Shown piece after piece: positions 49,280 to 64,000 of a stretch of DNA of 64,000 nucleotides. The position numbers were made by a program, and so were the translations under genes. Within the stretch, counting starts at the first letter, position 1, and each line of letters opens with the position of its first letter. The notes below the pieces were generated by a model. It made no database searches, was not told the DNA's origin, and worked only from the letters and a program-made list of their open reading frames with translations. This DNA is from Massalongia carnosa (lineage: Eukaryota), in contig OZ287081.1 of the NCBI GenBank assembly GCA_965645245.1, positions 868,001-932,000 of the forward strand. The letters are read 5' to 3'.

Positions 49280-51152
49280 CGGAGGCGAATCTCAAAAGTA
49301 ATGATAATACGCTAAAAGCTAGTGCCGTAATTTAAATTTTCCGTACCGAGCAAATTTTCCCCTTTTCTTTTCCCTTTTCTTTCCCCTTTTCTCATCCCAA
49401 ATCATTTACGAACCAACATTTGATCAAATCATCATCATGGTCAATAAATCAGCTGATATTTCTTTGCGGGCTCAGGTCTTGACGTTGTCTTATTGCACCC
49501 CGGCCTCAATTGAATTTATTGCAGCTACTACAGGTTATTCTGTCCCCAACATTTATCGTATTCGTCGCATTGCCAGGGATCGAGGATTTGATCCCGCCAT
49601 TTCTTTGCAGGTGCTTGATAAATACGCCCGTCATGAAGAAAAATCTGGTCGACCGAGAAAGGCTACTACTGAGAAAGAAGATGAAGTCATTGATCTAGTC
49701 ATAAAAGACAGATACACCCGTGAAAAAACCAGTGCCCAGTTGGCAAGGGAAGTTGGACTGTCCAGATGCACCGTGTGGAGAATCCTGAAACAAAGAGGCT
49801 ATAAAAAAGTCAAACCGTCGTATAGACCAGGGCTTACTCCTGAAATGAAAGCGGCTAGACTGGCTTTTGTCTCCTGTATAAAGACTGGACCGTGGAGGAT
49901 TGGAAGCGGGTTATTTGGTCAGATGAAACAGCAATAGTGCTTGGTCACCGTCGCGGAGCTGTCAAAATTTGGCGTACAACCAAGGAAGGAAGAAGACCAG
50001 TCAAATCCACCGTACGTGCCAGGTGGCATGGGGCTCATGAATTCATGTTTTGGGGATGCTTTTCCTACGATTGGAAGGGGCCATGTCATTGCTGGAAACC
50101 GGAGACAAAAGCGGAAAAAGCGGAAGCCAAAACCAAGCTTGACGAGATGAATGCTGCATTGGAAGCCAGTGAGAGATTAAATTGGGAGCTGACCAATGGA
50201 ATGAGACGTCTTTCAACTCGCAATTTACCAGGAAAAAAGCCGCAATGGAAATGGGATGAGGAACATGGAAAGATGATCAGAAAAGAAGGTAAAGGAGGCA
50301 TTGATTGGTGGCGGGATCAAAACGTCATAGTTCTGCCAAAACTGATTCCTTTTGCTCAGCAATGCAATGCAAACAGAAGAGAAGCCGGACTGTCTGAAAT
50401 GATCGTACAGGAAGATAAGGCTCCGTCTCATGCTTCCAAGCATCAGATTCCCATCTTCTCTCGTCATGGCATCGAGCGTCTTTTATGGCCCGGAAATTCT
50501 CCTGATCTCAACATGATTGAACCCTGCTGGCCCTGGATGAAGCGACGTACAACTGCCAAAGGTCCTCCTAGTTCTCGGTTAATTGCTGAATCTATGTGGC
50601 ATCGCACTTGGGACGATCTACCTCAGGAGAATATTCAGGCATGGATTGAAAGAATTCCACGTCACATTGCAAAAGTCATTGAATTGGAAGGTGGAAATGA
50701 GTATTGCGAAGGACGTTAGTACGTTGATGGACGGACCAAAGAAGGAAAAATGCGACTTCAACAGCTGAGGGAAGAATTGCTCAGTAATACAGCAAAACCA
50801 GCTTCTTCTTCTTCTTCTTCTGTGGCGTCAACGAGACCATCATCCAGACAATCAAATGATGATACACCCAGCCCGTTGAATGTCAGGGCAGTTACCCCTG
50901 AGCCCCCTACACAGAAGCCATTGACACCCCCCTTATTGAGAAAAAGAGCCGTTTTATCTCCGAAAAATCACCTTCCCCCACGCATTCAGAAGGTTATTCG
51001 TACTGCAGCCAGTTTCAGACCAAAAAGACGTTGATTAGATGGTTGGTAATGGCATTTGTAGATAGTTGGTAGAATTTCAGGCTCGGTATGGAAAATATAA
51101 ATTACGGCGCTAGTCTTTAGCGTATTATCAATACTTTTGAGATTCGCCTCTG
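49280..51152 (+). mobile_element. Tc1-type DD34E transposon (element Tc1-A) with 72-bp TIRs
   Basis: TIRs 49280-49351 and 51081-51152 (C[GA]GAGGCGAATCTCAAAAGTA...); TA on the left flank, TT on the right. Confidence 0.9.
49437..51034 (+). pseudogene. Tc1 transposase with a 1-nt frameshift (~49865) and an in-frame TAG (50717-50719) followed by an open extension
   Basis: HTH with SGRPRK; WSDE, QEDKA and SPDLNMIE give DD34E spacing. Confidence 0.85.
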
Positions 51153-51171
51153 TTCATAACTATACCTATTA

Positions 51172-51209
51172 ATTGTGCTAAACCACTTTCGGAATGGAAG
51201 AGCATCCCT
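51172..51209 (+). mobile_element. Outer half of an older, mutated Fot1/pogo family-B TIR; its inner half resumes at 58377-58432
   Basis: ATTGTGCTAAACCACTTTCGGAATGGAAGAGCATCCCT is a degenerate copy of the TIR starting at 51212. Confidence 0.8.
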
Positions 51210-51332
51210 TAATCGTGCTAGACCACTTTCGGAATGCAGAGAGCACCCCTCGGCTTAAAGACTCTACCGGCTCAAAGACGCTTTTTCAACATTTTACATC
51301 TCAACGTCGACACGTCAACAATCAACAACATA

Positions 51333-51932
51333 ATGGTCAATTCATATTCAGCTATCGAGGATCGAATTGACAGTGCAATTGACGCGTTACACGATGGTTT
51401 ATATACTAATTTTCGAGCTGCAGCCATAGCTTTTGACGTTGCCCCTCGTACGGTTCAAAAACGATGGAATGGAGGCAACTCCAAAAGCAGTCGACCTAGT
51501 ACCAACAAAGCTCTGACGGATGACCAAGAACTAGCTGTTCGTGACTACATCGAGCGATTGGACAAGGCCAACATGTGTGCGCGACCCAAATTGATCGTGG
51601 GGGCTGCAAATTATCTGATTCGTTTTGAGAATCGTACTCTTGGTCATCAGTGGCTGAAGCGATTTCTTGATCGAAATCCCGAGTTTCATGTACGAAAACA
51701 GAAGCCTCTCGCGGTCGATCGAAAACATAGTCACGACGTTAACGATATGGTTGAATATTTCAGCAAATTAGAAAGGGTGATAAGGGAAAAGGGAATAACG
51801 GAGCTGGATGTATGGAATATGGACGAAACAGGCTTTCGAATTGGATGCGGACGAGCTCAAATAGTAATTACCTTGGACCCACGAAAGCCTCTTCGTATGA
51901 CTGATCCGGATAATCGTGACTACATTACTTCT
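51333..51932 (+). pseudogene. 5' part of the element-B pogo/Fot1 transposase; C-terminal remnants at ~55109-55205 and ~58055-58190
   Basis: HTH_psq/CENP-B-like N-terminus, WLKRFLDRNP, VWNMDETGFRIG, NRDYITS, then an abrupt switch into a minisatellite. Confidence 0.85.
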
Positions 51933-52160
51933 ATGATCAAAAGGTGATATGAGGGGTGGACAAAATGTGGCCTGACAGGTGGACAAAAGGTGGTCTAGAT
52001 GATACAGTACTAGGCCAAAAGTCTGCGGCCCCGCACCCCACCAACATTTCAATCATTCTATTCAATCAACAATCAACCACGTCACGATTGCTGAAATGTC
52101 TTGAAACTTTACATAATGATTACATACATACTAAACAAGAATTCCCCCAAAAATTGATTT

Positions 52161-53590
52161 TTAATATTTAGTATACCATCCTTCCGATGCTATACACGCT
52201 TTTATCCTCCTATTTATGCTCTCTATTAACCTCCTCATCATTTTCACATCTATCAACGTCTAGGCTTCTTCTAACGCTTTCCAAAGTAACTCACGAACAG
52301 TTTCATCACTGCCGATCACCAAATCTATGTTCGGGTTGACTTGATAGACGAGCTTTTTGAGCACATACCAAACGTGCTCGATGGGATTTAAATCAGGTGA
52401 ATAGGGGGGCCAATCGATGACCTCTATGCCGTTCTCATTGAACCATTCCATCACCTTTTTAGCCTTATGTATAGGTGCGTTATCCTGCATGAAAATGAGT
52501 CCCGGTTGCCAAATTCCAAGCAGATTATCGTTCAATAATTCCATATATGAGTTCGCCGAGTACCCCATCTTCTTCGCAGCAAAATAACGAGCCAATTTGT
52601 AAAGAGCTGACCTGTCATCTCCCCAAAAAGCTGCCTAGACCATGACACTGACTCCTTTGCCTTTGGGGACAGGTTGTATCATCTCTTTATTCCATTTTTC
52701 TTTCGGCAATCTGAACACCCACTGACGCTGTTTTCCTGACCCCTTTTCCACTGAGCACTCATCTGACCATATAACTCTTGACTACTGCTCAAAAGTCCAC
52801 TCTGTTGTAATGTGCAAAGTCACCCGGCTGATGCCTAGTAAAGTGTTCAGAGTCACATAGTACCGCATTGGGATTAGTGCGTTGGTAAGAATATTAGGCA
52901 ACACATAACGACCTCGAGAAGCACCGCAAAACTTCTATGAACATTCCCATCGAGTCATAAATTGGATATGAGTCAAGCACCAATCTTAGATTTCTAGGAA
53001 GCAGGAAGGTGAGTCATAGGGAGAACGGTTTTCGGCATGTTTTTCTATCTATATAAACACGGTCCTTAGATAGGTAGATAGAAAAATCAATCGTTTCAAA
53101 AGTGAGCTTTTTACTACGCCAGCAGAGCTTCAATTACAATACACTCACGCCGCAGCAAGCACCAATCCAATCGTTTCTTGGCCACCTCAGGCGTCAATAA
53201 AGGTCGTTTTTTAGCCACCCAGTTGGTTAAACCATACAGTTTGAGTGCCCGATAAATAGTCGGACGACTGCAGCCGAGCCCCACTTCTAGTTTGATTTGT
53301 GCATAAGTGATTCGTGGATTGATTCGTGCATGCTTGATGATATAACGTCGATCGCGTTCTGATAGCACTTCAGGCCGTCCAGAACGTGATTTAGACACGC
53401 CGTCGTTGCGAATTGAGTGCTTCTGAATGGTGCTCTGCACGGTCGATTTAGTGAAATTAAGAGTCTTCCCAATCTCGGTCGGTGTGTGCCCCAACGCCTG
53501 GGCCCCAACAATCATACCACGTTGATATGGCGTCAATTCAGTATTACGAGGCCGATTACCACTTATGGGGGTCAAAGAAGCACGAAGCAT
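52161..53590 (-). pseudogene. Tc1-B transposase, interrupted by a solo LTR and three TAG stops
   Basis: ELTPYQRG..RSGRP HTH, IWSDECSV, QDNAPIH and WPPYSPDLNPIE (DD34E); stops at 52782-84, 52635-37 and 52260-62. Confidence 0.9.
52803..53141. mobile_element. Solo LTR (339 bp) with a 5-bp CACTC TSD
   Basis: CACTC|TGTTGTAA ... TTACAATA|CACTC; removing it restores the Tc1-B frame LLRREWTFEQ. Confidence 0.88.
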
Positions 53591-53990
53591 GGTGAAATGA
53601 TGAGGTGGAAGATGGGGGGTTGATGAGTTGAAAACGCGAAATCACGAAAATTACGGGTTGGGCCGCAGACTTTTGGCACGGGACTGTAGATAATAGATGG
53701 TCAAAAGGTAGTCTGGACGATGGACAAAAGGTGATCTGGGTGATGAACAAAAGTTGGCCTGACAGGTGGAAAAAAAGGTTATTAGTGGTGGACAAAAGAT
53801 GGTCTGGGTGATGATCAGAAGTTGGTCAAGACGATGAACAAAAGATGATATGGGCGATGGACAAAAGATGATGTGGACGATGGACAAAAGATGATCTGAC
53901 AGGTGGACAAAAGATGACCTGACAGGTGGACAAAAGATGATCTGACAGGTGGACAAAAGATGATCTGACAGGTGGACAAAAGATGATATG

Positions 53991-55108
53991 TGTAATGCGG
54001 ATGGCGCTAGAAGGATACGTGATCGCCTACGGCGGTTGCGGGATTTACTAGCATGAGCCAAGCCGTAGTACTTAGTCGCATAGCCGTCGAGGTTGACACG
54101 ACGCCACCTTGCCACACAACTCCGAATTAGTTGTTACTACGTTCTAGACTGCTTACAGATCAAACACCTGTCGAGGCCGTGGTGGTAGATTGCCATGGAG
54201 TAAGGCGAACTCCTGTGGAGAAGCCGTGAACTCTATATAGAATCTACTGGCCTACTCGGAGCTACTCGATCTCTTGATGGATCAAGAGTTGTAGCAGGAG
54301 GCACGGCTAGCTGGACGCAGCTTGAGCTCGGCCTCCCCGGTGTAAACTTCAGCTTCAACCTTTATTGCTACGTTGGTAGTGATGTCGGCTGAATCAACCT
54401 ACATGACCTTGTGGTCTAGACCTTGTGTCTAGAGGCAGGTCCGCAGTGTAGATAGAGATTCAGTCGGAGGTAACCTTCTATCGCTACGTTGGTAGTGGTG
54501 ACGGCGAAATGAAGTTACATAGCCTCGGCGTCTAGACTTTATGTTTAGAGGCAGGCTAGCAATGTAGTGAGGGATCTAGCCGGAGGTAGAAGTGTTCTAC
54601 CTTGCAAGGGAAGGTCTAGAAGGCTGCTCGAGGCTGACTAGATGATCCAGCGAACGCCGAGTTCGTAGATGGATCCTGAGGGATGGTTGGATGTAAGGCG
54701 ATAAGGTCAAAAGTGGGTTGCAAGGCTCCTAAAGTTCCAAGGCTCCCAAGGCTATAGGCTTGGGGTGAGTAGGATAAATACCAGAACGAATCCTGTAGTA
54801 TTCGTTAGCAATTAGTCTTTATTCTATGAACAACCTACGTTTGGGTCTCGGACGAGATCTCTTGGTCTAAGCACTTCCACATCCATTAGTTCTTTGGATC
54901 ACATATACTCTCGGAGACCAGCACGTAGTAGCTATCTTCCACCTCTCACGCTGAGCATTTCCCCTTTCGAGATCAGTGACGCTCGTGATTAGCTTACTGG
55001 TCTCGTAGCCCATTATACTATTCCCGTTGCACCTGACGAATACTACAGACCGCTCTATATAAGACCAAATACCCCTCGCGCCTGAGGCACCGAAGAAGAC
55101 GCGTAGCA
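53991..55108. mobile_element. Putative long-LTR fragment, truncated, with an internal 115-bp tandem duplication
   Basis: Begins TGTAAT where the minisatellite stops; non-coding; duplication 54357-54590; TATATAA 55056-62; no matching ..CA end seen. Confidence 0.45.
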
Positions 55109-55378
55109 CTTCAGCAAGTGCAAAAAGCCACCACATCACGTAAAAGTCGGGCCGCTCTCGGGGGTCAGGTAACTGCAAAGGGTAGAGTTATAAAATTCAG
55201 TCAATAGGGGTTTTCAGAGTAGAATTTCGACTTTTATAAATAAACCATTATTTCTTATTCTATAAACCATTATTCCCGTATTTGCCATTTTGCTCTGAGT
55301 CCCCCTATCACCTTAAATTTCAAAAAGATTAATAAACTGCTTATCGCCTTATCTGATCATCATCAAAAATCAATCATC

Positions 55379-56635
55379 ATGAAATTCTCTAAATCATCAT
55401 CTTATCAAGCTTCTGAAATGCCTCGATACAGCAACAAGCTTCTTTTACAAAGAGATCTGTACCACCTTTTCTTAGCCAGTAGTACTCTTGCCACCTCTTC
55501 CAATGAGGCCGATGACGCTTTGGAATACCTCATTCTTTCTGAAGGATTAAAGGATCAGAGATATCTTTTTTCCAGATCTTCCATTCTCAAGTCCAATTGG
55601 GCCGTTCGAGTCCTTCCCACTCTTTCAGATAATCGATATCGAGGCTATTTACGAATGAGTCGTATCTCCGTTCAACGAATAGTTGATTTAATTCGATCCG
55701 ATTCGGTCTTCCAAAACAATTCCAATATTCAACAGGCACCGGTCGAAAGTCAACTTCAATGTGCCTTATACAAGCTTGGTCATGATGGTAGCGGAAGCGG
55801 GTTTCTTTCAACTGCCACCTTTTGGGGAGTATCCGAGGGACACGTTTTCGATTGTACCAAGCGAGTGGTGGAGGCCTTATGTCGGTTGAGGAATAGCTTC
55901 ATCAAATGGCCAACTGCAAGAGCTAGGACAAGAGAAAGCTTAGCCAATGATACTCGAGAATCAGGATTTATCGGAGTAGTAGGAAAGGTGGATGGGACGG
56001 ATATAGTGCTCAGTACCAAACCTGGAGGTCGTTATGACGGCGAATTATTCTTTAATCGAAAGAAAAGATACGCCCTGGATTTATGTGCCGTATGCGATTC
56101 CGACAAAAGATTCATTTACTTCCTCAGTGGTTGGCCAAACTCTCAGCACGATCAGAGAATCTTCGCGGCGGGAGATTTGAATAGAAATCCTCATCTTTAC
56201 TTCTCGGAAGGGCAGTATCTTCTCGGCGACAGTGCCTACACCAATTCTCGCTATTTGGTGACTCCATACAAGGCCCCTCATACCAGAGATGCGAATGTTC
56301 GAAAGTTCAATAGAAGACTGTCTCGAATTCGTATTGACATCGAGCACACCTTTGGAATTTTGAAAGGAAGATGGAAAAGTTTAACCGGGCTGAGACTTCG
56401 AATTAGAAACAAAAAAGGTTACATCTACGCCATTCGTTGGATTACTGCATGTGTAGTACTGCATAACGTTTTGTAGGACATGCATGATGAATGGGAAGAA
56501 GAAGAAGGATGGTGGACATCAGAAGAGGAGGCTCATGATGAAGAATTAAAACATTTGGCTACAAAGCAAATGATGGAGGGCATTTTGAAAAGGGAACAGG
56601 TAAAAGATCTAGTTCTCAATGATATTGGCAGATGA
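55379..56635 (+). CDS. Harbinger-type DDE transposase (DDE_Tnp_4/HARBI1-like); one TAG at 56474-76 precedes an open acidic tail
   Basis: LRMSR, GVSEGHV, VGKVDGT, FFNRKKRY, GWPNSQHD, LLGDSAY, RIDIEHTFGILKGRWKSL, ACVVLHN. Confidence 0.88.
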
Positions 56636-56684
56636 CTATTAAGCAAGATGTATCTCATCTTTGAGACATCAATGAAATAAAATC

Positions 56685-57653
56685 TTATCTCTGGGACGTC
56701 TTCTCCAGCTCGATTTGTAGTCGTCGCATGGTCTCCTCATGTTGCATTTTAGCCATGATAATGGATTCTTCATGCTTCAAAATAATCTCCTGATGATGCT
56801 GATCTCGTTGCTTGATTTCTAGATCATTATTCCTTTGCAGTCTAGCCTGATCAATCTCGAAATCTTTAGATTTCATGAGTTGAACCTCAATCATTGCATC
56901 ACCCACGGACTTGTTTTTAGATCTTTGCTTACTTAGCTTGGGACGAGACGTCTCGCTGTCGCTGTCCACATTCCAGGGACGTTTAGTGGATGATCCCATC
57001 TTCTTGTTAAGGGTAGAAGGTTTTAAATGTTTAACCGTCTTCTTCTTCATCGGACCTTCTTTCAACAAATCCGTTTCGGATTGATTATCTTCATCTGTAG
57101 TCTTATCCTTAAGATCAATCTCGAAGTTATCATCTTCTGAATCATCGTTCAGTTCTTTTCCGCATGTCATCAATTCTGTAGTAACATCAGGCTGAGTGGA
57201 CTCTATGAGAAATGGAGGGGTAATAGTAGGTAGATCCCCCATGATCTCTTCAAATTCATAATACCATGCGCATTTCTTCAAGATAACCTCCTTGATTGTC
57301 TCCCCGCGAGTGTTGTCGGCGACAACATCATGATTGGTAGGATCCACTCCCTATCCAGTTGTATCGGCCAGACTCCGCGTCTCTTTGAAAGTCTTTATCA
57401 TCTGACCGATTTTGTCCCTCGTCTTTTCCTTTGAGATGTCCGGTCGTTGCAGTCCCAATCCACTTTCTTCCAACAAACGTCTGGATGCCTCCACTTTATT
57501 ACTCTTTTGATAGGTGTTTAGATGAGTAAGGACTCCATCGCCATCTCGAAAGCAAAGCCATTGAACAATCTGCTGAATGTCTTCATCTTTCCATCTGATG
57601 TTGGGAGCCTGGCGAGTTCGAACGATACGAGTAGGAGGGGGTGTGGACGTCAT
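56685..57653 (-). pseudogene. Harbinger accessory ORF (Myb/SANT/trihelix-like DNA-binding protein with a C-terminal coiled coil), one internal TAG
   Basis: WKDEDIQQIVQWL..DKIGQMIKTFKE..TG*GVD..CAWYYEFEEIMGD; ORFs 57351-57653 and 56685-57347 are in the same frame. Confidence 0.75.
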
Positions 57654-58432
57654 CTTTATTTTAGAACTGTTGGGGCTGATTCTGAGAATTTCTATTAACT
57701 AGATTTTGAGCCCTGACAAGAACACCCTGACAAGAACAGTGGTCAGCTATGAAAGAAGACGAGGTAGTAGTATTCTTACCTTAATTGTACGATTCGTTGA
57801 TGCCATTGATCATTTACCTTAAATAATTCTGATGAATGAGGTTAGTGGATTGAAGGATTTATGAGATACAGGTTTATGAGATAATGGTTTATCGGTCGAT
57901 TTTGACCGATAAACCATTATTCCCGTGTTCCCGTATTTATAAAAAAAAGGGGTAGAGTTAAATCTATATAGGTTTAGTCTGCTTACTAATATTTACGGGA
58001 AAACGGGAATAATGGTTTATAGACTCGAAAATTTCTACTCTGAAAACCCCTAATGTAGAGAATTATGTTTAATTCGTCAAAAAAAAATAAGAAGAAAAGG
58101 CTAGACGAAAGGAATAAAGGGAGGCTAATAAGTGGAAAAAGGCCTCATCAACCCAGTTAGACAACGTCCGATTTTTACTAGGGTAAGGCCCGTTAGTAGA
58201 ACAGACTGAGCCGTAGATTTTAAACACGAAATGAAGCTATTTGGACGTCTTTTCATAAAGATCTGATTAATTTAATGTTGAGGTGTTGAAAAATGCGTCT
58301 TTGAGCCGGTAGCGTCTTTGAGCCGGTAAGCACTGAGGGGTGCTCTCTACGTTCCGAAAGTGGTCTAGCACGATTAGTGCTTACCAGCTCAATAACGCAT
58401 TAGGCTCAATGTCGTTTTTTCCATCATCTACC

Positions 58433-58645
58433 TGTAAGAACCACTATCCAGGGAAGACGAATAGTAGTCAGCTACCTAAGAGACTAAGCATGAAGAAGAG
58501 AAATCTATCTACAAAGAAGAATGTGAAATCTATATGCCCGTTTGCCCTTCTTCTCGAAGTTTCCATCCGGCTCTAGAAGCTTATCTCCGAAGCTTCGGTC
58601 GGAAAGAGCCGTTGGATTTAGCGCTCCCACACCCGAGTCCTGACA
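58433..58645 (-). repeat. 3' LTR, 213 bp
   Basis: TGTAAGAACC...GTCCTGACA; matches 63921-64000; polypurine tract adjacent. Confidence 0.93.
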
Positions 58646-58682
58646 CTACCCCCCCTCTTGGTTAGCGAGCTCCTGATCGCTG

Positions 58683-61600
58683 TCATGTGATTAGCTTCGG
58701 TCGCGGCTTCTTTGGATATTTCTCTTCCACAGTTTCTTTTGAATTCGCAAAATCTTCGGCCGGATACCATGTGTTATCCGGTGGGTAATTGCTCCATTTT
58801 ACCTTGTATTGTAGCTTCTTGTTGAAAGTTCTTGAATCCAAAATATAATCAATTTCAAATTCTTCCTCGTTGTCAATAATTACCGGTGGTGGAGGCGGGG
58901 GTATTTGTCCGGGCAATGGGTCTTTACTTGCTGGTCGGAGTAATGATGAATGGAAAACATCGTGTATTTTCATCGATGCTGGAAGATCTAACTTATAGCT
59001 ATTCCTCAAAGCTTTTAATATCTTGTACGGTCCGATCATCTTATGATCTAGCTTTTTCGAAGGCCTTTCCGTTTTGATATTTTTGGTTGATAGCCAAACT
59101 TCATCTCCTTCTTTATAGGTTGGTGCCTCCTCCCGATGATTGTCCGCGAATCTCTTCTGACTTTCTTGGCTTCGTACTAGGTTTTCTTTTCCGAATTCCC
59201 AGATTTTCTCCATTGCTTGGCCGATATTTTTTGCTCGAGTTTTCAATATTCTTTCTCTGGCCGATCCGGTAGATGCGTCAATCGGATAGAAGCTCATCCT
59301 CGGTTCAAACCCATAGTTGACCTGAAATGGAGATAATCCACTTGAAGCTGAGACACAGGCATTTGATGCGAACTCGGCCATCGATAGCCACTCTGTCCAG
59401 TCATCTTGCTGATAATTGACATAGGTTCTCAGATATCGCTCCATTTCTTGATTGGATATTTCGCTTTGACCGTCGGTCTCGGGATGGAATGCGGTTGATA
59501 ACTTGGCTTTTATTCCCAGCATTACGCATAGCGATTTCCATGCTAGCGATACGAATTGAGGTCCCCTATCTGAGATTATCGTGGTCGGTAGGCCATGCAA
59601 TTTCCATACATGTTTTATTAGCATTCGGGCCGTCTCTTCGGCAGTTGTCCCTTCTTCGTCCGTGGTGCATGGAATGTAATGATGCATCTTGGAAAATCGG
59701 TCTACTACCATTAATATTGCATTATGACCTTTGCTTTCAGGTAGGCCAGTTACGAAATCCATTGATATATCTGTCCAGGGCCGGTCTGGTATAGTTAGCG
59801 GATTTAATAGTCCGGAATAACCGTCCCTTGGAGCTTTTGCTCTTTTGCATGTATGACAATTTCGAATGTATTGTTCTATGGTCCCTTTCATCTTTGGCCA
59901 AAAAAAGAATTTCTTCATCATCTCGTAGGTCCGCTTTATTCCCGGATGGCCAACGGCTGGTTGATCGTGAACTTCCTGTATCAGCTTCATTCTCTTTTCT
60001 TCGGGGACAAATAGTTTGGCATTATTCTCGAGCGGATCTTTCGACTTTTCCGCGTTGATCTCGTTCATTTCAAACCCCATTTCCTTTTGGATTTGAGGGT
60101 CTAGGCTTTCGAGAGGTAAGATTATCTGATGTTGATGCCTTTGCCTGTCATCTTCCTCTGATTCGGGCCTGTCTCCTGGTCTTCTAGTTAGTGCATCTGC
60201 CTTTGTATGGAATTTTCCAGCTTGGTATGTGATGACAAAATTGAAATCGGCCAGAAATTCAGCCCATCTGGCCTGTCGCCTATTTAGCTTTTTGGTTGTC
60301 ATGAAATATTCCAAGCTTTTGTGGTCGGTCAACACTTTGATTGGGAGCTCGGTGGATTGCAGCTCAGGCCTCCATTGTTCGAAACATTTGATTATTGCAA
60401 GCAATTCTTTATCGTATATTTCATAATTGCATTCGGCTGGCAACAGGCTCTTTGAAAAGAAGGCTACTGGTCTGATAAGTCCATCTTCACCTCTTTGCGA
60501 TAATACTCCGGCTGACACATAATCAGATGAATCCGATTCCACGAACGTTTCTCGGCTTGGGCTGAAATGCGCGAGGACCGGGGCCTCGGTCACCCGTCTT
60601 TTCAATTCGGAAAAAGCTGCTTGGCAGGCTGGGGTCCAATTGAATGGTTCGTCTTTTCGAGTTAGATGTACGAGGGGTTTGGCTATTTTGGAGAAGTCTT
60701 TGATAAAACGTCTATAAAAGTTGATAAATCCTAGAAAGGCCTGCACCTGTTTAAGATGCCTAGGGATGGCCCATTCGACGACTGCCTCAATTTTGGTAGG
60801 GTCCATCTTGATCCCATTCCGCCCGACTACCACTCCTAGGAACTTTGTTTCGGTCACATGGAATTCGCATTTATCCACATCAGCCTGAATACCAGCTTCT
60901 CGAAGCTTTTGTAGAACTTTTCGAACATGTTTTCGGTGGTCAGTCATGGTTTCACTATAAACCAAGAGATCGTCCAGATAGGCTATTAGGAATTCGTCTA
61001 GATATTCTAAGAAGGTATCGTTGATGAAGTTCTGAAACGTAGCAGGGCCGTTGGTCAGTCCGAAGGGTAATACTAGAGATTTATATGACCCAAATCGCGT
61101 GCGGAAGGTTGTGAGATCTTCGTCCTTTTCGGTTTTCATCCTAAGTCGGTTAAAGGCATGTCGAATATCTATTCTTGTCAAAAATCTAGCCCTGGCCAAT
61201 CGAGACATTATCTCAGATATCAGAGGTAGGGGATATCGATTTTTTTTGGTGATTTCGTTTAGCTTTCGATAATCGACGCAGAACCGAAGTCCACCACTCG
61301 GTTTCTTGGCGAATAGTATCGGCGAGGCAAAAGGGGCCGAGCTGGCTGTAATAAATCCTTTCTTCAGATTTTCTTCCAAATATCTCTTGACCAGTAGGAG
61401 TTCTCCCTCTGACATATTATATAGCGGGGCATGCCCGGGTCCTTTACCTTCTAGCAATTCGATGGTATGGTCATGCTTTCTATGAGGGGGCAGTTCATCA
61501 GCTTTTTCCTTAGAGAAAACATCAAGAAAATCGTGATACTCGGGGGGGACTATGGTCTTAGGATCGGTGATTGGCTTTTCTCCCTTGGCTAGTTCAAAGT

Positions 61601-62381
61601 TGATATCTCTCAGCGAGACTGCAAATATCTCGACATCCTTTTGTTTCGTTAATACATTAAATGGGTCTGCACCTATCATCGCTATATCCAGGGCTTCTTC
61701 GCTCTCGGCGTCTTTTCTCCAAGACTTTTGCTTCAAGATATCTTCCTTTCTTGATCTTCGAACTGAAATCGGGTTCGAGTTGCTATGATTCTTTTCATCG
61801 GGTTCGTCTCTTTTCAATATCTTCTTTGGTTGGAATATAGGCGTGGTGTCCTTTGTTGAGCCCGGTTCTTCTCTCCTGATTGGCGACGATGGGAAAGGCC
61901 TTTCAGGGGCACCTAGATGATTGCAATGATCGGGACGAAAAGAAATCGAATTCGTATGCCCATGATAGCTAACACCATGTTTTCGCATCCAAGGCTTGCC
62001 AAGAATAATCGTTTGTTGGCCCAGCTCGGTGATCAACATTGGTGTTGAGCTCTCGGTATGATTTCCAATTTTCAGAGATGGATAAATGGCCTGGGTAATA
62101 GGCTTGCCTTTTCTTCCATCATATGCCTTTATCTCTTTCCGTCTATTTAACGTCACCGGTGAGATATTAGCCTTTTCACATATTTCCTGCGCAGTTAGTC
62201 TATCAACAAAACAATAACCAGTAGATCCAGTATCAATCATCGCTCTCGTATTAAATTTATTTCCTACGATACAATCTTCCATTACTGGATGGTCATCGAA
62301 TAAATCATCCTCCATAAAGAAAGATGTGATAACCAACTCATCTACCCCCGCCGCGTCTATGACGGAGGTGCGTCTTTTCCC
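58683..62381 (-). CDS. pol: Pol polyprotein PR-RT-RNase H-integrase-chromodomain, in the -1 frame relative to gag
   Basis: IDTGST, LRFCVDYRKLN, YLDD, SDSSD, NYEIYDKELLAI, HHCC zinc finger, SMDF/SDRG/GQSE, GPY, chromodomain FEIDYILDSR..YKVKW..TW. Confidence 0.95.
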   Translation of the reverse strand, partial: GKRRTSVIDAAGVDELVITSFFMEDDLFDDHPVMEDCIVGNKFNTRAMIDTGSTGYCFVDRLTAQEICEKANISPVTLNRRKEIKAYDGRKGKPITQAIYPSLKIGNHTESSTPMLITELGQQTIILGKPWMRKHGVSYHGHTNSISFRPDHCNHLGAPERPFPSSPIRREEPGSTKDTTPIFQPKKILKRDEPDEKNHSNSNPISVRRSRKEDILKQKSWRKDAESEEALDIAMIGADPFNVLTKQKDVEIFAVSLRDINFELAKGEKPITDPKTIVPPEYHDFLDVFSKEKADELPPHRKHDHTIELLEGKGPGHAPLYNMSEGELLLVKRYLEENLKKGFITASSAPFASPILFAKKPSGGLRFCVDYRKLNEITKKNRYPLPLISEIMSRLARARFLTRIDIRHAFNRLRMKTEKDEDLTTFRTRFGSYKSLVLPFGLTNGPATFQNFINDTFLEYLDEFLIAYLDDLLVYSETMTDHRKHVRKVLQKLREAGIQADVDKCEFHVTETKFLGVVVGRNGIKMDPTKIEAVVEWAIPRHLKQVQAFLGFINFYRRFIKDFSKIAKPLVHLTRKDEPFNWTPACQAAFSELKRRVTEAPVLAHFSPSRETFVESDSSDYVSAGVLSQRGEDGLIRPVAFFSKSLLPAECNYEIYDKELLAIIKCFEQWRPELQSTELPIKVLTDHKSLEYFMTTKKLNRRQARWAEFLADFNFVITYQAGKFHTKADALTRRPGDRPESEEDDRQRHQHQIILPLESLDPQIQKEMGFEMNEINAEKSKDPLENNAKLFVPEEKRMKLIQEVHDQPAVGHPGIKRTYEMMKKFFFWPKMKGTIEQYIRNCHTCKRAKAPRDGYSGLLNPLTIPDRPWTDISMDFVTGLPESKGHNAILMVVDRFSKMHHYIPCTTDEEGTTAEETARMLIKHVWKLHGLPTTIISDRGPQFVSLAWKSLCVMLGIKAKLSTAFHPETDGQSEISNQEMERYLRTYVNYQQDDWTEWLSMAEFASNACVSASSGLSPFQVNYGFEPRMSFYPIDASTGSARERILKTRAKNIGQAMEKIWEFGKENLVRSQESQKRFADNHREEAPTYKEGDEVWLSTKNIKTERPSKKLDHKMIGPYKILKALRNSYKLDLPASMKIHDVFHSSLLRPASKDPLPGQIPPPPPPVIIDNEEEFEIDYILDSRTFNKKLQYKVKWSNYPPDNTWYPAEDFANSKETVEEKYPKKPRPKLIT

Positions 62382-63652
62382 GAATCTTCTGCTTCTGCGC
62401 TCATCTCGCTAACCCGTCCCTTTCTAGGCTGAGGGCAGTCTTTGGCCATATGCCCGGTCAGATCGCAGTTAAAACATCTTCCTTCCTTCATTCTTTTCTC
62501 CATGATTGGATCGGGATGGGGGGCTCGGGCCATAAAGGGCGTTGAAGATCGGCTGCTGGTGGCGGAAGGCATTGCGGGAGTACGGGTTAATGCGGGGGTG
62601 GAGGCCTTTACGATGGAGGTGGTCCCACCGGCCGTGCTTGCGATAGGTATTGAGGGGCCAACAAAGTTCTTTCGATAGCCTTTCGTCTTGGTCTCAACCT
62701 CGCGGATGGTCTGATCAGTATGCATGCATAGGCGTGCGAATTCATACAAATCGGTGGCCTTGTAGGCCTCGACGGCTAGCATCTTCTGGAGCTCAAAGTT
62801 CATCTTGTTGCGGAGCTCATTCAGTAGGGTCTTTTCGGAATATTCAAGTTCGTTGGCTAAGCGTTGGAATTCTGACCAGAAGGCATGGAATTCTCGATAT
62901 TTACCCACTTGTTTAAGGTCGCGGAATTCTCGCAGTGCTGTTTGTTCCTTGTGAGGGTCACCATATACTCGGTTTAAATCATCGAAAATCTCTTCAGCAG
63001 TGGTAAATGGTTTGGTAGACTCCTTTCTAAATCTAGAGGCTATATGCTTGACTGCCTCACCACCAACCCGAGTCCGTACGTATGCCTTTTTCATGGCCTC
63101 GGTAGGGTACCAATCCGCATTGCCTTCTAGCTTATTTCGCATGCTAGATAGCCAGTCCTCGAAGTTGTCGTCTTTATTATTTTCGAGAATGGGTGGGTCA
63201 GGAAGCTTGGAAGATTTGCCAACTCCTTCGGGGGCAGGTGTTGACGCGGTAGTGGTCGTGTGTGTATGCACATTCTCGGCCGATACGGTGCTTGCGGACG
63301 ATATGTTGGTGTTTTGAAGAAATTGGATTATCACCTTAGCTTTATCCAATTCCTCTTGGGCCGAGTCCCGCTCATCGCGAAGGGTCCGGGCTATCTCTAA
63401 CGTTTCATTGAATCTTTCGGCCACCTTGTTCAATAGGTGGGTCTTCGTTCGGGACTCCGTCTTCAACTCAGTTATCATTTCCACCACCCGCTGGGGGTCC
63501 TGGCGGACAAATTCATTCAGTCTATCCACGGAGTCGATGCTATATGGGGAGTCATCATCGATAATATTAGGGACAATGGACTCACGTCGGCCCTCCATGG
63601 GTTCGTCCATAGTGAGCCTACTCCTTCGAGGCTCGCTGATTACTCGGGGCAT
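62357..63652 (-). CDS. gag: Retrotransposon Gag with a CCHC zinc knuckle
   Basis: KLPDPP..FEDW capsid-like region; CFNCDLTGHMAKDC. Confidence 0.92.
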   Translation of the reverse strand: MPRVISEPRRSRLTMDEPMEGRRESIVPNIIDDDSPYSIDSVDRLNEFVRQDPQRVVEMITELKTESRTKTHLLNKVAERFNETLEIARTLRDERDSAQEELDKAKVIIQFLQNTNISSASTVSAENVHTHTTTTASTPAPEGVGKSSKLPDPPILENNKDDNFEDWLSSMRNKLEGNADWYPTEAMKKAYVRTRVGGEAVKHIASRFRKESTKPFTTAEEIFDDLNRVYGDPHKEQTALREFRDLKQVGKYREFHAFWSEFQRLANELEYSEKTLLNELRNKMNFELQKMLAVEAYKATDLYEFARLCMHTDQTIREVETKTKGYRKNFVGPSIPIASTAGGTTSIVKASTPALTRTPAMPSATSSRSSTPFMARAPHPDPIMEKRMKEGRCFNCDLTGHMAKDCPQPRKGRVSEMSAEAEDSGKDAPPS

Positions 63653-63920
63653 TTCTTCTTTCTTTCTTGGGGGTGTTCTTATCTTGTGATCTTCTATTCG
63701 ATGGCCGAGAAATCCTGGTTTCTACGATCCTGGGTTCTGGTTCTTCTGGGTCTGAGTTCTTCTTTTGATTCTGGTAATTCTGGTGGCCTAGAAATCCTTG
63801 CTTCTAAGGTCCTATGATCTGGTTCTAGTCTAAGTTCCGGGTTCTTCTTCTAATTTTCCTGGTTGAACGGTTTAATATCGTGTTCAGGATAGCAAGGGTT
63901 AAAGAAGATGCTTAGTCTAA

Positions 63921-64000
63921 TGTAAGAACCACTATCCAGGGAAGACGAATAGTAGTCAGCTACCTAAGAGACTAAGCATGAAGAAGAGAAATCTATCTAC
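63921..64000 (-). repeat. 5' LTR (partial)
   Basis: Identical to 58433-58512. Confidence 0.93.

Follow-up and report, generated by a model that had tools for sequence, protein, structure and literature searches.

Among the PHIS transposons, the Pangu group has been defined by an ANT target-site duplication (TSD), terminal inverted repeats (TIRs) of 11-40 bp starting with AG or GG, and two open reading frames (ORFs), the second of which is mostly devoid of recognised motifs (Han 2015, PMC4482050). The group corresponds to Harbinger2 of Repbase (Kojima 2025, PMC12730594). Han 2015 recovered its Pangu representatives as a single clade and put the group beside bacterial IS5; the function of their ORF2 is given as unknown and 2 of the 34 Pangu families were scored as potentially active (PMC4482050). 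For Harbinger3_DR, a canonical PIF/Harbinger element, a two-protein mechanism has been described in which a Myb-like protein binds the transposase as well as a subterminal motif of 9 bp (PMC9710019).

The published record for fungi is mixed. Table S1 of Han 2015 (PMC4482050) contains no ascomycete among the TWA Harbingers, and the median fungal assembly, of 1,726 drawn from all groups, has 0 transposase-bearing PIF copies (Muszewska 2017 supplement, PMC5751038), both of which agree with the statement in our initial annotation that PHIS elements are uncommon in Pezizomycotina, while the main table of the latter study describes PIF/Harbinger as ubiquitous in fungi, which speaks against it. That a Pangu element should be unexpected in an ascomycete finds no support, Table S3 of Han 2015 already listing four such families, three from Tuber melanosporum (2731-3156 bp) and, with 2567 bp and AWT, Pangu_Tsti of Talaromyces stipitatus (PMC4482050).

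Here we describe an element of 2,846 bp at positions 55206-58051 of a 64-kb stretch of DNA (the window), which lies in a genome of 52.16 Mb comprising 25 contigs. We read it, with a probability of nearly nine in ten, as the dead copy of a cut-and-paste DNA transposon with two genes, young and belonging to the PHIS group Pangu (Repbase Harbinger2), which inserted into an older pogo fragment. The assignment to Pangu rests on the structural definition (TSD, TIR and ORFs), and the Tuber and Talaromyces families were compared by their table rows.

Anatomy of the element and its two proteins

The perfect TIRs (19/19 matches, ends AG..CT), together with the DDE_Tnp_4 transposase and, converging on it, a second ORF, confirm that a real element had been recognised (Table 1). 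The stop codons of the two genes face each other across 49 bp. Each ORF carries a single TAG, as originally reported, but the description "near-intact" was an overstatement in that both genes are broken by changes absent from the other genomic copies (56475 T>A and 57352 C>T). The window copy, now dead, belongs to a cut-and-paste element that has been spreading recently. All five copies of the 12-bp motif ATAAACCATTAT in the window are located inside the ends of the element, and the whole region 49300-64000 constitutes a nest of mobile elements.

Table 1. Features of the transposon and of its neighbourhood (positions in the window)
Feature	Position	Strand	Remarks
Left TSD	55203-55205		AAT; from flanks, genomic copies and empty sites
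Left TIR	55206-55224	+	19 bp, AGGGGTTTTCAGAGTAGAA, begins AG; first 11 bp common to family 2
Subterminal motif ATAAACCATTAT	55240-55273	+	two copies, at 55240 and 55262; candidate ORF2 binding sites
PHIS DDE transposase gene	55379-56635	+	private TAG at codon 366 (56474-56476)
ORF2	56685-57653	-	private TAG at invariant W101 (57351-57353)
14-bp tandem repeat	57711-57738		upstream of ORF2; copies L008, L009 and L012 have insertions at the same position
Three further ATAAACCATTAT copies	57881-58020		57881 reverse, 57909 forward, 58009 reverse; inner palindromes
Right TIR	58033-58051	-	19 bp, reverse complement of left TIR
Right TSD	58052-58054		AAT; from flanks, genomic copies and empty sites
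Host pogo/Fot1-type fragment, left of insertion	55109-55205	+	95% to intact copies
Host pogo/Fot1-type fragment, right of insertion	58052-58376	+	94% to intact copies
Tc1-like pieces	49323-50719, 53114-53641
pogo pieces	51222 onward, 55109-58376
High-copy repeat	~54331-55015		382 candidates
Ty3-type pol with chromodomain	58683-62408

In intact copies the transposase has 418 aa; the conserved start may be M14. The transposase gene matches PF13359 (DDE_Tnp_4) with E 9e-29 to 1e-28. Among 32 homologues D205 and D284 are invariant and E322 is conserved in >=90%, yielding the DDE_Tnp_4-type transposase with a D, D, E triad that characterises the PHIS superfamily. In the predicted model, which is confident (pLDDT 88), the three residues lie, as expected, on a strand, a strand end and a helix, respectively. 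The best Foldseek rows are DDE transposases, but no solved structure reached E 0.001. In the window copy the stop comes after the catalytic domain, and 53 residues are lost. Neither protein gave a Pfam match to THAP, YqaJ or Myb domains.

The intact ORF2 protein of 322 aa consists of an N-terminal helical, putatively Myb/trihelix-like region, an acidic linker and a long C-terminal helix, and the TAG of the window copy replaces the invariant tryptophan W101. Its initial labelling as Myb/trihelix-like has indirect support. Against it, Pfam yielded no direct Myb match, also for none of eight aligned homologues (0/8). In its favour, ORF2 scored 0.92 in the Atlas, which counts as one source, to an automatically named Myb/SANT-like cluster (the N-terminal part scoring below 0.9), and there is a two-step profile link, from ORF2 to the ORF2 of metagenome contig L141 (HHalign probability 74.5) and from the latter to PF13837 (E 4e-4, below the cut-off). 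Against the Myb ORF of the canonical Harbinger in the same genome (family 3, see below) the probability was 5. The predicted model of ORF2 is poor (pLDDT 53), with no Foldseek match at E 0.001 and no sequence match in the PDB, and its VIA-align matches, taken up by generic coiled coils in residues 246-322, barely probe the N-terminal domain. A complex prediction of transposase residues 14-418 with ORF2 residues 235-322, run without alignments, gave no verdict (score 0.00). Taken indirectly, these similarities point to a putative Myb/trihelix-type binder.

By analogy with PIF/Harbinger elements, and with Harbinger3_DR in particular, ORF2 would bind the repeated subterminal 12-bp motif and bring the transposase to the ends, whereupon the DDE enzyme would cut the AG..CT ends and join them to a target with a 3-nt stagger. 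Intact copies could supply both proteins in trans and broken copies would, as in PIF/Harbinger, still be movable.

Copies, target sites and host genome

A DNA search of the genome, in which 40/40 candidates were scored, revealed 11 contiguous copies of this element (family 1), a further two that large insertions have split, and two fragments of the right end. Family 1 has reached at least 13 sites by transposition. The two TAG stops occur in no copy but that of the window, and both ORFs are open (418 + 322 aa) in 7 of the 11 copies. Individual copies differ from the majority sequence by 4-22 substitutions (0.1-0.8%); no two are identical, 10 differences separating even the closest pairs, so that present activity is conjectural. 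Copies L003 and L004 lie in different flanks yet agree in six substitutions and in two insertions of 1 bp, a pattern suggesting that a broken copy was moved in trans, although gene conversion or an assembly error could also have produced the shared indels. Among 49 exact end matches (control, 1) there were no short MITE pairs, and three end matches were unpaired. The split copies L068 (987-6885) and L069 (1037-6605) are interrupted within about 15 bp of one another, near the start of the transposase gene, by insertions of 5.9 kb and 5.6 kb, respectively, the latter with TG..CA ends and a 5-bp duplication.

The genome contains 42 DDE_Tnp_4 matches in all. Family 2 (L055-L067, L210; on C1, C4, C8, C12, C16, C20 and C21) is a second Pangu-type family, of 3.9 kb, with about 70% identity to family 1 in the transposase and 50% in ORF2, and it shows AWT duplications (AAT or ATT) at 9/9 two-ended loci of the 13 fetched, two of these nine retaining both ORFs. 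Its convergent ORFs are separated by a 1.1-kb non-coding spacer which includes a 440-bp piece repeated elsewhere and a 41-bp stretch 93% identical to window positions 57667-57707, upstream of the family 1 ORF2. Family 3 (L206-L209; on C9, C10, C16 and C22) is a canonical Harbinger with GGG ends, a TTA duplication at 3 of 4 loci and an ORF2 carrying PF12776 (Myb); its transposase is 24-27% identical to that of the window element. It is a TTA-duplicating Harbinger, and Table S1 of Han 2015 is without an ascomycete TWA Harbinger (PMC4482050). A fourth, decayed DDE_Tnp_4 family (L212-L215; on C11, C2, C18 and C13) shows 26-28% identity over a short stretch.

Between families 1 and 2, dN is 0.22 and dS 1.9 for the transposase, and dN is 0.22 with saturated dS for the N-terminus of ORF2; within family 1 pN/pS is 1.0-1.4, a range which may be inflated by misaligned codons near indels. 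As judged from these substitution patterns, both proteins show evident purifying selection between families, and both genes have been needed over evolutionary time, with individual copies drifting neutrally after insertion.

The window carries genes of SHE3 and DUF7892 type and the genome yields 37 HET-domain matches. There are, in addition, what we take to be one DIM-2-like and two RID-like methylases, and these markers (SHE3, DUF7892, HET and DIM-2/RID) presumably point to Pezizomycotina. The genes at L217 (C17) and L218 (C15) have open catalytic exons, and we assume them to be RID/Masc1-like from their motifs. RID/Masc1 is on record only from Pezizomycotina (Muszewska 2017, PMC5751038). RIP seems to be weak or absent despite the RID-like genes, many transposons being intact and near-identical, and family 1 has persisted because it was spared by RIP. 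As a source of the two stops of the window copy RIP was rejected since one of them is a T>A change and C>T changes among the copies are without CpA bias (CA 20/338, CT 20/360, CC 15/265, CG 12/214). The insertion lies in a decayed remnant, with stops of its own, from the 3' part of a pogo/Fot1-type transposon; an intact copy of this transposon (L091) matches DDE_1 with E 6e-21. In this fragment (55109-55205 and 58055-58376) 13 of 22 substitutions are C>T or G>A, a mild skew relative to about 48% in the Pangu copies.

Each of the 11 contiguous copies is flanked by a 3-bp ANT duplication (AAT in two, ATT in six, ACT in two and AGT in one), where two random local 3-mers would match by chance with P ~0.02 per copy; the two split copies each have one mismatch (AGG/AGT and AAA/AAT) such that 11 of the 13 two-ended copies are perfect. 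Family 1 targets ANT in AT-rich DNA, mostly as Y-ANT-A, with T or C at position -1 in 10/11 and A at +1 in 9/11 contiguous copies. The flanks also fit another register. If the boundary is shifted inwards by one base, the element starts with GGGG and TA stands on both sides in 11/11 copies, as would be seen in an element that duplicates TA or TWA in the manner of PHISTA or of canonical Harbinger, and empty sites were therefore needed to decide. At the best 14 of 42 matches to the pogo/Fot1 host, 14/14 read CAGTCAATGTAG, with a single AAT at the empty paralogous site and no room for the alternative register. Moreover, the middle base varies between A, T, C and G and is part of the duplication in all contiguous copies; TAA or TTA, which the initial annotation had considered decisive against its own reading, is duplicated in none (TWA, 0/11). 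The TA and TWA registers are both ruled out by the empty sites, and we regard such a duplication as next to impossible. The ANT duplication is established by copies and empty sites together.

Intact sister copies of the pogo element read VIKVSQCRELCSIRQK across the empty site, in the frame VSQCRELC, bearing out, with the 14 single-AAT sites, the AAT duplication and restored SQCRE frame proposed at the outset; the frame is real, but it belongs to the decayed transposon fragment and not to a cellular gene of the host. The features by which Han 2015 (PMC4482050) delimited Pangu are thus all present, namely ANT with empty sites, the 19-bp AG..CT TIR, a transposase free of further domains and a motif-less ORF2, and they uphold the designation Pangu-like PHIS. 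Other PHIS groups do not fit: ISL2EU elements have an AT duplication, a THAP transposase and a YqaJ ORF, where this element has a 3-bp duplication with a variable middle base; PHISTA duplicates TA, which the empty sites exclude; Nuwa I and II use CWG or C-TNA-G targets, which are not those seen here; and Spy inserts in AAATTT with no duplication, whereas a 3-bp duplication is present here.

Phylogenetic position and possible transfer

Trees were built from 207 of 242 candidate sequences (FastTree) and from a chosen subset of 58 (UFBoot), with supports read per bipartition. The transposase falls in a clade of 36/58 sequences (UFBoot 100) or 37/207 (FastTree 1.0), the only named members of which are three Tilletia proteins, 45-50% identical and lying outside a 32-sequence group that contains the query (UFBoot 99), the other members being mostly 50-67% identical to the query. 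Both trees separate the window transposase from the TTA Harbinger of the same genome and group it with the Tilletia proteins; the sequence searches retrieved no named Pangu reference protein. The branching suggests an old fungal lineage, with no direction of transfer given. A metagenome scan gave 72 loci, most of them short; of those exceeding 2.3 kb, two had paired TIRs and a 3-bp duplication. Metagenome contigs L141 and L143 carry a 2.9-kb element with proteins similar to those of Rhizophagus, convergent in layout and with AGG..CCT ends, flanked by ATT in L143 and by TAT in L141; as a distant relative flanked by a triplet other than ANT, L141 was counted against our reading.

A recent horizontal transfer into the host fungus, with the family nearly unchanged in unrelated organisms, would account for the presence of 0.68-0.86 of the 31-mers of the element in five sequencing runs under three organism labels and from three studies, which is about as expected at 99.5% identity; one further run at a share of 0.08 and four at 0.00 provide no evidence, and no RNA run was listed among the holders. 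The origin of all copies in one recent burst, and the restriction of named tight-clade members to proteins of the basidiomycete Tilletia, could be taken the same way. The labels, however, may stand for a single fungus, for closely related congeners, or for hosts and mixed samples that contain it, and one run may be the source of the assembly itself, while a recent burst is possible without transfer. Beyond the query's own 90% cluster protein identities do not rise above about 67%, the Tilletia proteins at 45-50% are not nested within the 32-sequence group, and a second family in the same genome at saturated dS fits long residence equally well. Transfer of this kind appears improbable to us. 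We would give an equally small chance to an undescribed fungal Pangu sub-lineage, spanning the Pezizomycotina host, Tilletia and about 30 environmental sequences, which is still moving between unrelated organisms, the labels then denoting different species. If true, this would amount to a recent horizontal invasion at about 99% identity, with intact copies escaping RIP in spite of the methylase genes which we take to be RID-like.

A somewhat more doubtful proposal is that the element represents a separate PHIS lineage outside the Pangu/Harbinger2 clade which reached its ANT choice independently. The query clade does stand on a long stem of 0.39-0.54 substitutions per site with supports of 100 and 1.0, and TSD and clade can disagree within PHIS, Nuwa I and II being in one clade (PMC4482050). 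None of 30 clusters is named from Tuber, Talaromyces, Melampsora, Tremella or Chondrus, and the two that are named are both from Tilletia, but the absence of these genera says little because names are scarce in the collection. Length, TIR, TSD, the two ORFs and the motif-less ORF2 all fit the Tuber and Talaromyces rows of Han 2015, and the Pangu representatives are a single clade in that paper (PMC4482050). A dead copy of a young Pangu element remains the preferred reading.

Comparison with known systems

A literature search, conducted without Repbase entries and most subscription papers, found no description of family 1, and among the literature searched there was no transposition assay for a Pangu element, the matches concerning Buster and Spy elements (Spy: PMC11304231). 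The genome adds one more Pezizomycotina host of Pangu beside Talaromyces and Tuber. Copies such as L006, which is four substitutions from the majority sequence, fit two open and apparently unspliced ORFs into 2.8 kb and offer natural test material; they could show if ORF2 is required by Pangu elements and what makes ANT the target instead of TWA, the TWA Harbinger of the same genome serving as a control.

The canonical PIF/Harbinger elements (Harbinger3_DR, rice Pong/Ping and family 3) resemble family 1 in combining a DDE_Tnp_4 transposase with a second gene (Myb-like in these elements and putatively so in family 1), a 3-bp TSD and a repeated subterminal motif, whereas family 3 differs in its TWA target, GGG ends, Pfam-detectable Myb domain and distant transposase. 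The unannotated DDE_Tnp_4 proteins of Tilletia indica and T. controversa (KAE8243924.1, KAE8228482.1 and CF328_g4359) belong to the same supported clade, but they derive from basidiomycete hosts; the comparison was made between proteins. The nearest systems in form are Pangu-1_Tmel/Harbinger2-1_TMe (2731 bp, AWT, 404 + 343 aa) and Pangu_Tsti/Harbinger2-1_TSt (2567 bp, AWT). With these Pangu elements, family 1 has in common the ANT duplication, a TIR of 11-40 bp starting with AG, a domain-free DDE_Tnp_4 transposase of about 400 aa, a motif-less ORF2, a copy number of 10-40 and a Pezizomycotina host. It is unlike the Pangu families of Han 2015, few of which were scored as potentially active (PMC4482050), in that seven natural copies, diverging by less than 1%, have both ORFs open.
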